The notes under the pieces: generated by a model
The model's input: the letters and a program-made list of their open reading frames with translations, nothing else
The model's database searches: none
Told to the model about the DNA's origin: nothing
Program-made: the position numbers and the translations under genes
Assembly (NCBI GenBank): GCA_025830695.1
Contig: GCA_025830695.1_4111.2
Reading direction: 5' to 3' (one strand)
Origin: a phage
DNA: 64,000 nucleotides
In this document: piece by piece, positions 15,837-24,871 of the stretch
How positions within the stretch are numbered: the first letter of the stretch is position 1
Layout of the letters: each line of letters begins with the position of its first letter

Positions 15837-15923
15837 TGGTTGACTTCGGTCAGCCATTTTGCTATTATATATTCATTGAGAGATAGCTCACTAGCCCACA
15901 GGGTGCAGGAGTGTATCTATTGT
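15837..15923 (+). repeat. element R copy 1 (terminator-like hairpin + promoter + conserved leader)
   Basis: GTGGTTGACTTCGGTCAGCC...TTTGCTATTATAT...AGCCCACAGGGTGCAGGAGTGTATCT. Confidence 0.6.
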
Positions 15924-15972
15924 ATAATGTTTGAGTACTGAAAACTATTTTAAAGTATTTGATAAAAAGTAC

Positions 15973-16028
15973 TTGCAAACTATCTCAATAGGCGTATAAT
16001 GTTTTACATCGAAAGGGGAAACGGTTTC
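15973..16028 (+). promoter_or_regulatory. early promoter + 5-prime hairpin cassette
   Basis: TTGCAA 15973-15978, TATAAT 15995-16000, hairpin GGAAACGGTTTCC. Confidence 0.65.
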
Positions 16029-16051
16029 CTCTGGTAATAAGGAAACGAATC

Positions 16052-16393
16052 ATGACTATCTCAATTGCTCAATCTAACTTTGAAAACGAAATCATCGCTC
16101 AGGCACTGCGTTTAAATGATGGTCGGGCCGAAATCAATTACGGTTTCAATTCAGGCGGTTGTGAAAAATATCAGTACTTTGTAACGGCTGATGGCTGTGT
16201 CCTGGGCATCAATACAGTTATTGTAAACATTCAGAAAATTAATTTCAATGATCCAGACGATAGCCAGTTTTACATTGTAGGCGTAGACGTGAACTATGAG
16301 GATGACTCACTAACTGATGATCACACTGGCGAGCGGTTAGAAAGTGCATACGGTGAAGATGATTATCAGTCCGGTCCAGAAGATTTCGAATAA
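16052..16393 (+). CDS. hypothetical acidic protein (113 aa)
   Basis: ORF track; SD AAGGAAA. Confidence 0.65.
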   Translation: MTISIAQSNFENEIIAQALRLNDGRAEINYGFNSGGCEKYQYFVTADGCVLGINTVIVNIQKINFNDPDDSQFYIVGVDVNYEDDSLTDDHTGERLESAYGEDDYQSGPEDFE

Positions 16394-16407
16394 TATTAAA
16401 AAATAGT

Positions 16408-16466
16408 TTGACAATAGATTATAGTACTGTATAATGTTTTACATGAAGGGGAGAATAGTTCTCCCC
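16408..16466 (+). promoter_or_regulatory. early promoter + 5-prime hairpin cassette
   Basis: TTGACA 16408-16413, TGTATAAT 16428-16435, hairpin GGGGAGAATAGTTCTCCCC. Confidence 0.7.
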
Positions 16467-16486
16467 ACTAACAGAGAGAAAACAAA

Positions 16487-16699
16487 ATGGCTAATATCCG
16501 GTCGAAATTAAAAAATGCAAAACAAGTTTTATTTTCAGATCATGAATACTTTAATAAAGATATTACAGGAGTTACAAGTATCAAGGAGGTAAAAGAAAAA
16601 ACCGGAGTTTTGTGTGATGTGCGATTAGTTGGAACATTTGGGAATAACGTGCTATATCGCTGTGGTGATTACAATTTTACACTGACTATTATTAACTAA
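16487..16699 (+). CDS. hypothetical protein (70 aa)
   Basis: ORF track. Confidence 0.65.
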   Translation: MANIRSKLKNAKQVLFSDHEYFNKDITGVTSIKEVKEKTGVLCDVRLVGTFGNNVLYRCGDYNFTLTIIN

Positions 16700-16728
16700 A
16701 AAATATTATCACAGTACTATCAAAGCTA

Positions 16729-16757
16729 TTGACACTGATTGATAGTACTGGCATAAT
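16729..16757 (+). promoter_or_regulatory. promoter (TTGACA...GGCATAAT class)
   Basis: TTGACA 16729-16734, 17 bp, CATAAT 16752-16757. Confidence 0.6.
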
Positions 16758-16792
16758 AACTTTTATCAACTACACTACTAAGGAATTAAAAA

Positions 16793-16972
16793 ATGGCTAT
16801 CATCGCAAAAACTGAAATCGTTGGTCTGGATTCTATCATCATGACGTTTGAAGATCAAAAAGGTATGTATGTAGTTTCCTATGGTGATTATGTTCGGGAG
16901 TATGAAACGGTAGACGAAGCCTTTGAAAGCTATATTCGCCAGGTGAATAAAGCATACGACGACTACCGCTAA
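16793..16972 (+). CDS. hypothetical small protein (59 aa)
   Basis: read by eye; SD AAGGAA; MAIIAKTEIVGLDS... Confidence 0.5.
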   Translation: MAIIAKTEIVGLDSIIMTFEDQKGMYVVSYGDYVREYETVDEAFESYIRQVNKAYDDYR

Positions 16973-16999
16973 AATATATTACCAGTACTATTAAAGATA

Positions 17000-17027
17000 T
17001 TGACAACGTTTGATAGTACTGTATAAT
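17000..17027 (+). promoter_or_regulatory. promoter
   Basis: TTGACA 17000-17005, TGTATAAT 17020-17027. Confidence 0.6.
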
Positions 17028-17071
17028 AAGTTTTATAAACAGTAGTTAACTTAACCTAAGAGAGAAATAAA

Positions 17072-17215
17072 ATGATCGCACTGGATTCATTCATCGACGC
17101 AGTACTGGCAAAAACTGGCGAGGATCTGACCGCAGAACAATACGCAATGATCGAACAATGCCAGCAAGACGGTAAATCGGTGAAAGATACTGTTAAGATT
17201 ATCCGCAAGATGTAA
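17072..17215 (+). CDS. hypothetical small protein (47 aa)
   Basis: read by eye; SD AGAGA; MIALDSFIDAVLAKTGEDL... Confidence 0.45.
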   Translation: MIALDSFIDAVLAKTGEDLTAEQYAMIEQCQQDGKSVKDTVKIIRKM

Positions 17216-17236
17216 GATTATAGCCCACTGGTTAAC

Positions 17237-17244
17237 GCTGGTGG
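17237..17244 (+). other. Chi octamer GCTGGTGG inside terminator-like hairpin
   Basis: TAGCCCACTGGTTAACGCTGGTGGGCT. Confidence 0.5.
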
Positions 17245-17320
17245 GCTTTAATTCATTACCCTATACAATGCCAGTACTAAACCGTTTATCTCGTTAGAAT
17301 GCGTTACAGGACGTTTAACA

Positions 17321-23028: not shown

Positions 23029-23050
23029 GATACTAAAAGGAAACAAAATT

Positions 23051-23323
23051 ATGTCTAGCTACTCCGCTACTATGATCATTAAAGATATGAACGGTAATCC
23101 TACTTCTGCTGGTGGATCATTTGGAAACATTAACTTAGATGGTCGGTTATCAATTGAATCAGCCATCAATGCAGCGAAAGAAGTTTTTAAGAATGAATGT
23201 ACTGTTAGTAAGCTGGATTATATGGGATTCGCTATCGAGAAAACTAATCGTTTTGTGAACTACAAAAATCCACTGATGATTGATACTAACCTGAAAGCTA
23301 ACGAAGTGGAATACTTATTATGA
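23051..23323 (+). CDS. hypothetical protein (90 aa)
   Basis: ORF track. Confidence 0.65.
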   Translation: MSSYSATMIIKDMNGNPTSAGGSFGNINLDGRLSIESAINAAKEVFKNECTVSKLDYMGFAIEKTNRFVNYKNPLMIDTNLKANEVEYLL

Positions 23324-23511
23324 CAGTTGAAGAAGTTAAAAAAGTACTGGCAGTACTACGCTATCATAACCATTGCAAGGTTAAGAATGATCCTGATTAT
23401 GTTGATTCATCCCTGGAGGAAGACACATTAAACGCAATAAGCCATATGCAAACATTAGCAAAGCGTATGACCGAAAAGAATAGACCGGACTATATCGGAA
23501 ATAAAATTTAA
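23320..23511 (+). CDS. hypothetical protein (63 aa)
   Basis: ATGA overlap with upstream gene. Confidence 0.55.
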   Translation: MTVEEVKKVLAVLRYHNHCKVKNDPDYVDSSLEEDTLNAISHMQTLAKRMTEKNRPDYIGNKI

Positions 23512-23518
23512 AAAGTAC

Positions 23519-23579
23519 TTGCATTGTAGTTAGATTAACGTATAATGTTTTACATAGAGCGGGGGAATAGTTCTCCCGC
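23519..23579 (+). promoter_or_regulatory. early promoter + 5-prime hairpin cassette
   Basis: TTGCAT 23519-23524, TATAAT 23541-23546, hairpin GCGGGGGAATAGTTCTCCCGC. Confidence 0.7.
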
Positions 23580-23597
23580 CAGTCCGGGAGATACACC

Positions 23598-23864
23598 ATG
23601 AACACTATCGAAATCACTATCAATGCACACGTATACGACAACGTAGTACTGCAAACTACTATGACCGCTAATGATACCAGTACTTTGCGGAATACCGTTG
23701 TAAGTGCTGTATGTGCTGCAATCGGTGATGTAGCCCTGGAAAATGCAGAACACATCAACAACGGTTTCACTATGTGCAAACGTGATAACGCAAAACATAT
23801 CATCTTAGAAGGTTACGGCGGTGTAGAATATAATCTTTATATGAAAAAAGTACTTGCAAAGTAA
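23598..23864 (+). CDS. hypothetical protein (88 aa)
   Basis: ORF track; SD GGGAGA. Confidence 0.65.
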   Translation: MNTIEITINAHVYDNVVLQTTMTANDTSTLRNTVVSAVCAAIGDVALENAEHINNGFTMCKRDNAKHIILEGYGGVEYNLYMKKVLAK

Positions 23865-23910
23865 CTAAAACAAAGTATAATGTTTTGCATAGGGGGAGAT
23901 ATCCTCCCCC
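23854..23910 (+). promoter_or_regulatory. early promoter + 5-prime hairpin cassette
   Basis: TTGCAA 23854-23859, TATAAT 23876-23881, hairpin GGGGGAG-ATATC-CTCCCCC. Confidence 0.7.
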
Positions 23911-23928
23911 ACTAAAAGGAGTACTAAA

Positions 23929-24153
23929 ATGGCTAACTTTGATGAACTGATGCGGGAAGTAGCTAACCTGGCAGAAGAGAAGAAATCATTCGATTCTATC
24001 TATAACACCGCTCATCGTGATTCAGTACTGGCATGTACTCAGGATCAAAAAGATGAACTAATCGCCACATATCATGAAGCATGGAAGTACTACCGCCAAT
24101 GGGAGAAAGAAGAAAGCGAGTCTACCATCAACGGCATCAATAATCTAATCTAA
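23929..24153 (+). CDS. hypothetical protein (74 aa)
   Basis: ORF track; SD AAGGAG. Confidence 0.65.
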   Translation: MANFDELMREVANLAEEKKSFDSIYNTAHRDSVLACTQDQKDELIATYHEAWKYYRQWEKEESESTINGINNLI

Positions 24154-24171
24154 AGTTTTATTTCAGTACTA

Positions 24172-24200
24172 TTGACATAGCTTGATAGTACTGATATGAT
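24172..24200 (+). promoter_or_regulatory. promoter
   Basis: TTGACA 24172-24177, 17 bp, TATGAT 24195-24200. Confidence 0.55.
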
Positions 24201-24228
24201 AACTTTACTAACTACAAGGGGAAACATC

Positions 24229-24486
24229 ATGGAACAATTCACACAATATCGGGTAAATCCTCAAGCTATGGCCTACGTAGAAGACCATAAAACGTTACCA
24301 GTACTGCAACCAGTTAAAGGCCATATCTATCGTGCGATGGCGTGGAGTACTGCCCAGGATGGCTATAAAACCGTTGCCGTTGGTATGTACTGCGGTAATG
24401 GTGAATGGTTTGATCCAAATAATCCGGTAGCAATTAACAGTACTGAAAAAATGAAATGGGCCGACTACATCGAAGATATTTCATAA
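24229..24486 (+). CDS. hypothetical protein (85 aa)
   Basis: start moved to ATG 24229 (MEQFTQY); SD AAGGGGAAA. Confidence 0.6.
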   Translation: MEQFTQYRVNPQAMAYVEDHKTLPVLQPVKGHIYRAMAWSTAQDGYKTVAVGMYCGNGEWFDPNNPVAINSTEKMKWADYIEDIS

Positions 24487-24493
24487 AAACTAT

Positions 24494-24554
24494 TTGACAG
24501 TACTAACCAGTAATGTATAATGTTTTACATAGAGCGGGGGAATAGTTCTCCCGC
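24494..24554 (+). promoter_or_regulatory. early promoter + 5-prime hairpin cassette
   Basis: TTGACA 24494-24499, TGTATAAT, hairpin GCGGGGGAATAGTTCTCCCGC. Confidence 0.7.
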
Positions 24555-24576
24555 CAATAGTTTGGAGTAAAACATT

Positions 24577-24777
24577 ATGTCTATCGCTCTCGCCCTGGTT
24601 GAAGTACTGAAAGAAGCTAAAGCCAACCTTATCGATGTACAGATTAAGGAATTGCAAAATGGTTTAATCGGCTGTACTTGTACCGCTGGTGGAGCGGCAG
24701 ACTATCGAGAACACGAATCACTAGAATCGTTGGTCCGGTATCTTACAATCATCGTAGAAGATTGGAGAATCATCTAA
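24577..24777 (+). CDS. hypothetical protein (66 aa)
   Basis: ORF track. Confidence 0.65.
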   Translation: MSIALALVEVLKEAKANLIDVQIKELQNGLIGCTCTAGGAADYREHESLESLVRYLTIIVEDWRII

Positions 24778-24793
24778 CAAAAAAGAATAAAAA

Positions 24794-24871
24794 AGGGATT
24801 GACTCCGGTCAGTCCCTTTGCTATTATATACGCATAGACAAAAACTAGCCCACAGGGTGCATAGGTGTATC
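24794..24871 (+). repeat. element R copy 4
   Basis: GGGATTGACTCCGGTCAGTCCCTTTGCTATTATAT...AGCCCACAGGGTGCATAGGTGTATCT; Chi octamer follows at 24907. Confidence 0.65.

Follow-up and report, generated by a model that had tools for sequence, protein, structure and literature searches.

A conserved promoter-coupled block, tentatively a short early RNA, in the terminal repeat of Rak2-like jumbo phages

Conserved elements placed directly after a promoter are known at lambda PR′ (the 6S RNA and Q), at HK022 put and at lambda nut, where a short or two-hairpin nascent RNA decides whether terminators are read through. The RfaH ops element has a 12-nt consensus, GGCGGTAGCGTG, with G5 and T6 essential. 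T4-like phages carry promoter-early stem-loop (PeSL) cassettes (Arbiol et al. 2010, PMC2839356; Comeau et al. 2014, PMC4122927), and PA5oct, a host-RNA-polymerase-dependent jumbo phage distantly related to the one studied here, makes two abundant non-coding RNAs, ncRNA001 and ncRNA002 (236 and 451 nt; 2–5% of phage reads each), from inside its long terminal repeat (Lood et al. 2020, PMC7318152). We analysed a 64,000-nt stretch of phage DNA (contig GCA_025830695.1_4111.2; hereafter, the window), in which an initial annotation had described a four-copy composite element, R, between 15837 and 24871: a terminator-like hairpin overlapping a promoter and followed by a conserved leader. We found that R is made of two separable modules, the hairpin with its promoter (module 1) and the conserved transcribed block with a small hairpin, SL1, ahead of it (module 2). 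The block appears to represent a previously undescribed family of about 100 promoter-coupled RNA modules, absent from databases and from the papers searched. We established its anatomy, its coupling to promoters, its conservation across genera, the covariation of SL1 and the confinement of the block to the direct terminal repeat (DTR) of the genome.

The closest described relatives of R in design are the PeSL cassettes. Both are intergenic composites with a strong sigma70-like early promoter, an AT-rich upstream tract and a terminator stem-loop overlapping promoter elements; both cluster among small genes of unassigned function, and both coincide with indel breakpoints between close relatives. 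R differs in lying in the DTR of a Rak2-like jumbo phage, in having its −35 box within the 5′ arm of a c(UNCG)g hairpin, and in its 30-nt transcribed block, which has no ribosome binding site or start codon of its own, whereas a PeSL cassette ends in a Shine–Dalgarno sequence and ATG. These last two features are missing from the four flagged cassettes and are found instead in an abundant second promoter family. The PA5oct pair is the only precedent we found for non-coding RNAs that map to the terminal repeat of a jumbo phage, as R does. Homology between the two is ruled out, as the block model, run over the opening 40 kb of the PA5oct record with its entire 39,080-bp repeat, gave no match and scored 7.9 bits at best.

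The region 15500–25500 of the window gave 69 matches to jumbo coliphage records at 90–99% identity, the closest being vB_EcoM_CRJP21 (96%) and JP4; 121Q, PBECO4, G17 and phAPEC6 matched likewise, and all of these are members of Asteriusvirus. To judge from these matches, the phage is an Asteriusvirus (121Q/PBECO4-like), a Rak2-like jumbo coliphage. Position 6769 corresponds to the first position of both the CRJP21 and the vB_Ec-M-J records, and the annotated DTR of vB_Ec-M-J (1–21525) maps onto 6769 to ∼26278, which places the four flagged cassettes inside the DTR. Experimentally confirmed DTRs in Asteriusvirus measure about 20–21.5 kb (PMC13070987). The DTR holds ∼50 small plus-strand genes, nearly all of them hypothetical.

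The four loci described initially are real. The hairpin 22-mer GGGATTGACTCCGGTCAGTCCC occurs exactly at 19533, 22528 and 24795 (0 expected in shuffles), two of which had been placed one base too early, at 19532 and 24794. The copy 1 hairpin at 15838 (GTGGTTGACTTCGGTCAGCCAT) deviates from the 22-mer at five positions, and its pairing is retained through two compensatory double changes and one change of G–C to G–U. The flagged hairpins have a 12-pair stem, a c(UNCG)g loop and a U-rich tail, TTTGCTATTAT, and fold at −19.5 kcal/mol (z = −6.0, copy 2) and −15.9 kcal/mol (z = −5.0, copy 1) relative to shuffles. In sequence they thus have the GC-rich hairpin and the immediate U-rich tract of an intrinsic terminator, and the identical 22-mer is independently annotated as an ARNold terminator in the GenBank record of G17. 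Inside the 5′ arm of each hairpin sits the −35 box, TTGACT. Together with a −10 box TATTAT at 17 bp and a TG extension, it forms a promoter scoring 10/12 at 15840–15868, 19537–19565 and 24799–24827; copy 3, for which the same −10 had been given, has TAATAT (22555–22560). All four match the sigma70 pattern of TTGACA-like and TATAAT-like boxes 16–18 bp apart with an optional TG. The conserved block, AGCCCACAGGGTGCATAnnTGTATCT, follows 21–28 nt past the −10, at 15893, 19585, 22585 and 24847, with 0–2 mismatches (0 expected). The overall architecture of hairpin, embedded −35, −10 and block was therefore borne out, the 22-mer being exact in three copies and compensated in copy 1.

As had also been noted, the cassettes separate gene groups: all four are intergenic and lie 3′ of the stops of the open reading frames (ORFs) 15692–15826, 19369–19518, 21872–22513 and 24577–24777. 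Similarity among them spans ∼240 bp and reaches into a second promoter, 3′ of the block, which bears the ribosome binding site and ATG. Within the window the terminator hairpin is restricted to these four among the block copies; the placement of a −35 within a 5′ arm reappears in other genera, with other stem sequences, and a terminator hairpin covers the −35 in about 35 of the 86 non-identical family copies described below. The sequence supports reading module 1 as a compact terminator–promoter junction, and the proposal that the element could terminate upstream transcription and restart it gains support from the strong hairpin, its U-rich tail, the G17 annotation and the near-consensus promoter.

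Module 2 is not confined to these four cassettes. We observed 11 block copies in the window with the covariance model run without filters (E < 0.0004); the repeat search gave seven on the plus strand, and a pattern search added one on the minus strand. The plus-strand copies start at 8006, 9941, 15891, 17576, 19583, 22583 and 24845, and those on the minus strand occupy 7835–7866, 8051–8082, 9986–10017 and 11599–11630. All 11 fall between 7835 and 24876, and the 44 kb beyond the DTR holds none, since the next covariance match reaches only 9 bits. The non-flagged copies have an ordinary promoter, TTGAC(A/T), 17 bp, CATAAT. Thus the block is indeed present in all four copies of R, but it is not a four-copy element; it is separable from module 1 and belongs to a much larger family.

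An exact-pattern scan of IMG/VR recovered the block in contigs that we take to be Klebsiella phage RaK2, Cronobacter phage GAP32, CBB, 121Q and Yersinia phage fHe-Yen9-04, and in uncultured relatives. On these loci (265 kb), which were retrieved by the block motif itself, the covariance model gave 100 matches that reduce to 86 non-identical copies, and the family counts below refer to this set. The conservation in related genomes that formed part of the initial annotation's test is thus found, with ∼100 block copies in Asteriusvirus, RaK2, GAP32, CBB, fHe-Yen9-04 and the uncultured relatives. Each of the related jumbo phages has ∼10 copies per genome in a single cluster of ∼20 kb, and in CBB every copy lies in the first 22.4 kb, that is, in its DTR. 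The block is nearly invariant across genera that have only about a third of their proteins in common (PMC5259590), while its flanks and the SL1 stems diverged freely. A host origin is ruled out by the lack of any exact match among 185,579 bacterial and archaeal species, represented by one genome each. A metagenome scan with a 14-base pattern returned 80 loci, mostly chance matches, of which only L048 and L071 are convincing (38.9–44.4 bits), with L034 and L080 at 24–25.5 bits. Rfam gave no match in the 64 kb with the gathering score as threshold; relaxing this to E up to 1 over 7000–26000 brought nothing at the element and only two weak matches elsewhere (Trp_leader at 13129, mir-1000 at 13953). 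The searched literature contained no description of the block motif or of Asteriusvirus transcripts.

The coupling of the block to promoters is strict. In 83 of the 86 copies a sigma70 promoter (≥9/12) has its −10 ending 20–30 nt upstream, always on the same strand, compared with 4/86 in a control that combined the other side and the other strand. The distance from −10 to block has modes at 21 nt and at 26–28 nt, and the block therefore begins at roughly +15 or +21 of the transcript and reaches +45 or +50.

Next, we compared the copies as RNA. The block consensus, UAR CCC AYA GGGUGC RNRRD U(G/C)U(A/G) YCU AU, is ∼30 nt long and preceded by a YUAR linker. SL1, between the start site and the block, has 3–5 bp, a purine-rich loop of 6–7 nt and at least two dozen stem sequences. 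Homologous copies in related genomes, which the initial annotation proposed to compare, do covary here: in a model-fitted alignment of 78 distinct copies all four pairs were changed on both sides, and 118 cells were double-changed against 44 ± 4.5 in shuffles, none of the 500 shuffles being as high. Within the block, two helices are mutually exclusive as both use GGG. In P2, CCC pairs with GGG in 97% of cells across a loop of 3–4 nt whose sequence varies; CCU..AGG variants are present, the base preceding CCC is A or G, either of which pairs with U9, and two-sided changes amount to one double change. In P3, GGGUG pairs with positions 19–23 (YRYCY), also in 97% of cells. Opposite G the 3′ strand of P3 has only U or C, and opposite U only A or G; double changes are absent, and the pattern preserves the predicted pairing in this RNA strand and not in its complement. 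Module 2 is probably selected at the RNA level, because SL1 covaries, the variation is strand-specific and the block is coupled to a promoter.

Two other ideas were rejected. A long hairpin in which the 5′ segment would pair with N5 plus the 3′ segment seemed appealing in a few copies, but it is no more stable with a copy's own partner than with swapped ones (−5.81 versus −5.67 kcal/mol, permutation p = 0.31). A mini-ORF (NTG TAT CTA TAG) fails because 9/44 copies have TCT for TGT and thus no start codon.

What follows the block differs between copies. In 25 of the 86 a second copy faces the first at a fixed offset of 57, 68 or 75 nt, the distance between the start of one block and the complement of GGGTGC in the other. 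Two of these pairs, 9941/9986 and 8006/8051, are in the window; others are 8046/8109 in L001, 561/606 in L024 and 302/365 in L005. Measured between the two start sites, facing pairs are conserved imperfect palindromes ∼110 bp long, and their read-through RNA would fold into a long hairpin of −35 to −42 kcal/mol (−39 kcal/mol, z = −3.6, for the pair at 9891–10063). If both promoters fire, the polymerases would meet about at the position of the block. A separate canonical terminator stands 46–52 nt past the block start in another eight copies, for example at 11683–11556 of the window, where the terminator at 11575–11556 also serves the plus-strand gene 11299–11550. Six copies, including the one at 8006, have a U tract directly after P3. 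The remaining copies, the four flagged ones included, run into the next promoter and gene. The sequence features usual for an Hfq-type trans-acting small RNA (its own promoter, 50–250 nt and a Rho-independent terminator with a U tail) are seen in a subset, the eight terminator and six U-tract copies, and the flagged copies lack the terminator. A gene-specific leader is ruled out, as the genes 3′ of the leader-type copies in the window are mutually unrelated.

The above results led us to the reading that module 2 is a multi-copy short early non-coding RNA, itself the product, whose invariant bases bind a conserved partner. We hold it tentatively, at somewhat less than even confidence, because close to half of the copies lack any downstream gene to express. 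The terminator hairpin would stop the upstream gene group exactly where a new host-RNA-polymerase transcript begins, since the −35 of a near-consensus sigma70 promoter with an extended −10 is built into its 5′ arm. Module 2 would form the first 45–60 nt of that transcript: SL1, the YUAR linker and the 30-nt block, CCC-AYA-GGGUGC-N5-U(G/C)U(A/G)YCU-AU. Its GGG has two possible partners: the upstream CCC, giving P2, or, when extended to GGGUG, the downstream YRYCY, giving P3. Such an RNA would be made immediately on infection, free-standing where it ends at a terminator, a U tract or a facing copy, and in the four flagged copies it would be the 5′ end of a messenger RNA (mRNA). The nearly invariant bases may be the site for a host or phage protein or RNA that is titrated or guided. 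We infer that the RNA is produced, that it acts in trans and that it has a binding partner. The conserved short RNA that the initial annotation had suggested is supported indirectly, by promoter coupling in 83/86 copies, SL1 covariation and the free-standing units, with the qualification that the flagged copies would run on into the next promoter and gene.

Several observations count against this proposal. Having no terminator before the next promoter, the four flagged copies would yield only a leader. The SL1 counts depend on the model-fitted alignment, P2 and P3 are unproven by two-sided covariation because their 5′ strands are invariant, and the stability of the leader RNA is unremarkable (z = −0.2 to −1.3). 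The searched literature held no transcript data for these phages. The search for a partner was negative at each place we looked: no word longer than 8 nt is shared with, or complementary to, the rrnB operon, which rules out mimicry of or pairing with host ribosomal RNA, the spacer tRNA-Glu or 5S; Pfam found no RNA-binding or antiterminator domain in 30 DTR ORFs, which argues against a nearby phage-encoded partner protein; and the lack of an Rfam match at the element gives no partner from that side. Finally, a cis-acting elongation signal would account just as well for the strict placement of the block near its promoter.

Such a signal is the first alternative to weigh, and we consider it possible but unlikely. 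In that case the block, as nascent RNA or as non-template DNA, would pause RNA polymerase and load or mimic a factor that confers terminator resistance, in the manner of put, nut, ops or Q-like systems, or else P2 and P3 would offer an attenuator choice of the RAT/BglG type. The fixed position at about +15/+21 to +45/+50 of strong promoters is in favour of it, as is the fact that gene groups are separated by terminators. Mutually exclusive P2 and P3 also suit an attenuator, with a U tract right after P3 in six copies, but in most copies this tract is missing. The consensus elemental pause reads G−11 G−10 ... Y−1 G+1, and either G7 G8 ... U17 G18 or G10 ... Y19 R20 of the block resembles it. 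R and the lambda and HK022 elements have a conserved post-promoter placement in common. A lambda-type nut site combines boxA with a boxB hairpin whose loop is purine and GNRA-like, and the SL1 loops GAGAAA and GCGAAA look like those of boxB. However, these purine-rich loops (AGAUAA is another) differ between copies of one genome, inspection of the consensus revealed no boxA-like sequence (CGCUCUUA), and R has no sequence or Rfam match to these elements. No NusG-, Q- or N-like domain was found by Pfam among the 30 DTR ORFs. R is also present in ∼10 copies per genome, on both strands and often without a downstream gene, and its block is conserved in sequence, whereas put is conserved in structure. 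The likeness to ops extends to the promoter-proximal leader, the frame GC-N5-YGTR, a pause-like G at −10, Y at −1 and R at +1, and copy L016 agrees with ops at 9/12 positions; but G5 and T6, the core of ops, fall where the block has its variable N5. As the equivalent of T6 is A in 32/44 copies and T in only 4/44, most block copies are not ops sites. The copies that lack a downstream gene, close to half of the family, are awkward for control of elongation in cis.

We regard it as improbable that the block lacks a specific function, being an optimised initial transcribed region and 5′ stabilising hairpin copied along with a strong promoter and homogenised by gene conversion, so that the cassettes matter as PeSL-like patches of homology. 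In T5-type strong promoters conservation likewise extends into the transcribed region. The more abundant promoter family has a 5′ hairpin as well, and homology and indel breakpoints fall on the repeated promoter cassettes. Against CRJP21, vB_Ec-M-J, G17 and others, these breakpoints lie at 10154, 11238, 15366, 18794, 19528, 20101 and 22965; 19528 is the start of copy 2, where several relatives lose homology. The recombination module considered in the initial annotation therefore has breakpoints on its side, but the sequence supports such a role as a side effect of the cassettes. Functionless copying is hard to reconcile with a block that stays nearly invariant across genera sharing about a third of their proteins (PMC5259590) while its flanks diverged, with conservation to about +50, far past the promoter-escape region, and with free-standing copies that have no mRNA to stabilise.

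That the block is a DNA-level site, either an operator or roadblock for a phage shut-off protein or, with its facing palindromes, a transcription-primed replication origin or recombination site, is very unlikely. On its side, conservation of the block is chiefly at the sequence level, the facing pairs keep fixed offsets within imperfect palindromes and the copies are confined to the DTR beside Chi sites and iterons. On the other side, its orientation relative to the promoter never changes, and several copies have a CCC–GGG spacing that is shifted by 1 nt, a shift incompatible with a rigid DNA-binding site. In addition, variation in the 3′ strand of P3 is wobble-compatible on the transcribed sense only, and the neighbouring SL1 is under RNA-structure selection. 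Compared by eye, sigma54, sigmaE, sigma32, T7-like and MotA-box promoters misfit the block in spacings and key bases. The features located in the window are listed in Table 1.

Table 1. Coordinates of the terminal repeat, the R cassettes, the further block copies and associated features in the window
Feature	Position	Strand	Details
DTR	6769..26278		∼19.5 kb; left end exact, right end approximate; holds all block copies
Variant copy (CCCACCGGGTGCATAGTTACGCCC)	7835..7866	-	Own −10; SL1 AGTC-gagaaa-GACT
Diverged copy (CCTGCTAGGGTGCGGGAGTGTATCC)	8006..8041	+	T7 directly after second helix; in apparently non-coding DTR left end
Variant copy, promoter 8134–8107	8051..8134	-	Faces copy at 8006
Extra copy without terminator hairpin	9891..9972	+	TTGACT, 17 bp, CATAAT; SL1 GGC-agataa-GCC; block; faces 9986..10063
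Minus-strand copy	9986..10063	-	TTGACA, 17 bp, CATAAT (10063–10035); block 10017–9986; long inverted repeat with 9891..9972
Free-standing unit	11556..11683	-	Promoter 11683–11655, SL1, block 11630–11599, bidirectional terminator 11575–11556
Copy 1 terminator-like hairpin (AAAGTGGTTGAC-TTCG-GTCAGCCATTTT)	15833..15860	+	−35 TTGACT 15840–15845 in 5′ arm; −15.9 kcal/mol
Copy 1 sigma70-type promoter	15840..15868	+	TTGACT, 17 bp, TATTAT, TG extension
Copy 1 SL1 (TGAG-agatag-CTCA), then linker CTAG	15877..15890	+	Helix covaries across family
Copy 1 conserved block (CTAG CCCACAGGGTGC AGGAG TGTATCTATTG)	15891..15922	+	Covariance model, 45.8 bits
Second early promoter, abundant family (TTGCAA, 16 bp, TATAAT)	15973..16000	+	Then 5′ hairpin, ribosome binding site, ORF 16052–16393
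Extra copy	17523..17607	+	TTGACA, 17 bp, CATAAT; SL1 GACG-agaa-CGTC; block
Copy 2 terminator-like hairpin, −35 inside	19530..19557	+	−19.5 kcal/mol, z = −6.0
Copy 2 promoter TTGACT, 17 bp, TATTAT	19537..19565	+	Sequence
Copy 2 conserved block, short form, weak 3-bp 5′ stem only	19583..19614	+	Covariance model
Chi octamer, 8 nt after block 2	19618..19625	+	One of 9 plus-strand DTR sites
Copy 3 terminator-like hairpin with −35 (22532–22537)	22525..22552	+	Identical sequence annotated as terminator in G17
Copy 3 SL1 (TGAG-agataa-CTCA), linker and block	22569..22614	+	61.5 bits, SL1-plus-block model
Copy 4 terminator-like hairpin with −35; promoter 24799–24827	24792..24819	+	Sequence
Copy 4 conserved block, short form	24845..24876	+	Covariance model
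Chi octamer, 35 nt after block 4	24907..24914	+	Sequence

The Chi octamers that had been reported within 50 bp of two copies are there, at 8 and 35 nt, but they are not specific to the element, because Chi is enriched across the whole DTR: GCTGGTGG occurs at 11 sites in the window against 0.39 expected, all of them in the DTR (7346–24914), nine on the plus and two on the minus strand. An inverted pair at 7346/7358 lies ∼580 bp from the left genome end. CRJP21 and vB_Ec-M-J have the same Chi pattern, and the motif-bearing loci of other genera (L001–L026) contain 64 Chi sites in 143 kb, several of them in promoter spacers as CCACCAGC. This enrichment suggests either that the genome ends are shielded from RecBCD or that the two repeats recombine with each other. 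A further Chi pair (13212, minus; 13274, plus) lies just 3′ of the second of two identical terminator-like hairpins (AGCCCACCTTAAACAGTGGGCT, then T5), which stand 735 bp apart at 12431–12452 and 13166–13187.

The second early promoter family has 23 copies between 7127 and 25410 (for example 8408, 15139, 20106 and 25354) and is laid out as AAAGTACTTGCA, 16 bp, GTATAATGTTTTACATCGAG, a GGGGGAAAnGGTTCTCCC hairpin, a ribosome binding site and ATG. It provides the second promoter after each flagged copy, and breakpoints relative to CRJP21 and vB_Ec-M-J fall on its copies, a PeSL-like shuffling of modules. A palindromic octamer, CAGTACTG, occurs at 59 sites across the window against 0.75 expected (for example 7108, 7148, 9905, 17537 and 43450), often in promoter spacers just 5′ of the −10, with AGTACT often just 5′ of the −35; it may be a candidate binding site for a phage or host protein.

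As for the DTR itself, its left 1.7 kb (6769–8440) is apparently non-coding, with only short, overlapping ORFs listed, and is the counterpart of the stretch preceding the first annotated coding sequence in CRJP21 and vB_Ec-M-J. It contains direct repeats of GGACGGCTAAACGGCTAGAT (∼7560–7680), the inverted Chi pair, three diverged block copies and many CAGTACTG sites, and may have a role in packaging, in replication or at the genome end. Pfam assigned the 30 DTR ORFs a DksA/TraR-type zinc finger (members of this family bind RNA polymerase), a GNAT acetyltransferase, a ParE-like toxin domain, a weak protein-kinase match (loci 17850–18107, 18171–18527, 21070–21324 and 21872–22513) and DUFs; DUF7249 is present as a paralogue pair, at 8891–9193 and 10192–10431. 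No transfer RNA or transfer-messenger RNA was found in the window. Just beyond the DTR, 26300–32700 holds a tight array of ∼70-amino-acid ORFs with overlapping stops and starts and a conserved 51-nt coding segment (...TTAGGAACAAACTATCAAGA...) in 12 copies, an arrangement that suggests paralogous genes in tandem. A 49-nt unit containing ATGCATAAAGAATACTAC is repeated seven times at intervals of ∼190 bp in 4760–6345, and units of ∼100–220 nt are repeated three to five times at 43440–45500.

Rak2-like jumbo phages (121Q, PBECO4, RaK2, GAP32, CBB) are candidates for phage therapy, and their early programme is made up of hypothetical genes; the flagged repeats sit in the DTR, the first DNA available for expression. 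A bolder version of the short-RNA proposal, which we put forward only as a speculation and think rather doubtful, is that module 2 would constitute a new class of early phage RNA, made at high dosage (∼10 genes per DTR and two DTRs per genome) by host RNA polymerase in the first minutes. Its CCC-AYA-GGGUGC would capture a conserved enterobacterial factor or the transcribing polymerase. Either as a decoy or as a modifier that, like put, needs no protein, the RNA would reprogramme host or early phage expression, and facing pairs would make defined short RNAs without terminators. If the RNA were such a decoy or polymerase modifier, it would amount to a new mechanism of host takeover. The hairpin–promoter design appears to be an old and conserved arrangement that fits both terminator and promoter into ∼40 bp, and even without a function for the block, the cassettes would explain where these genomes break and reassort.

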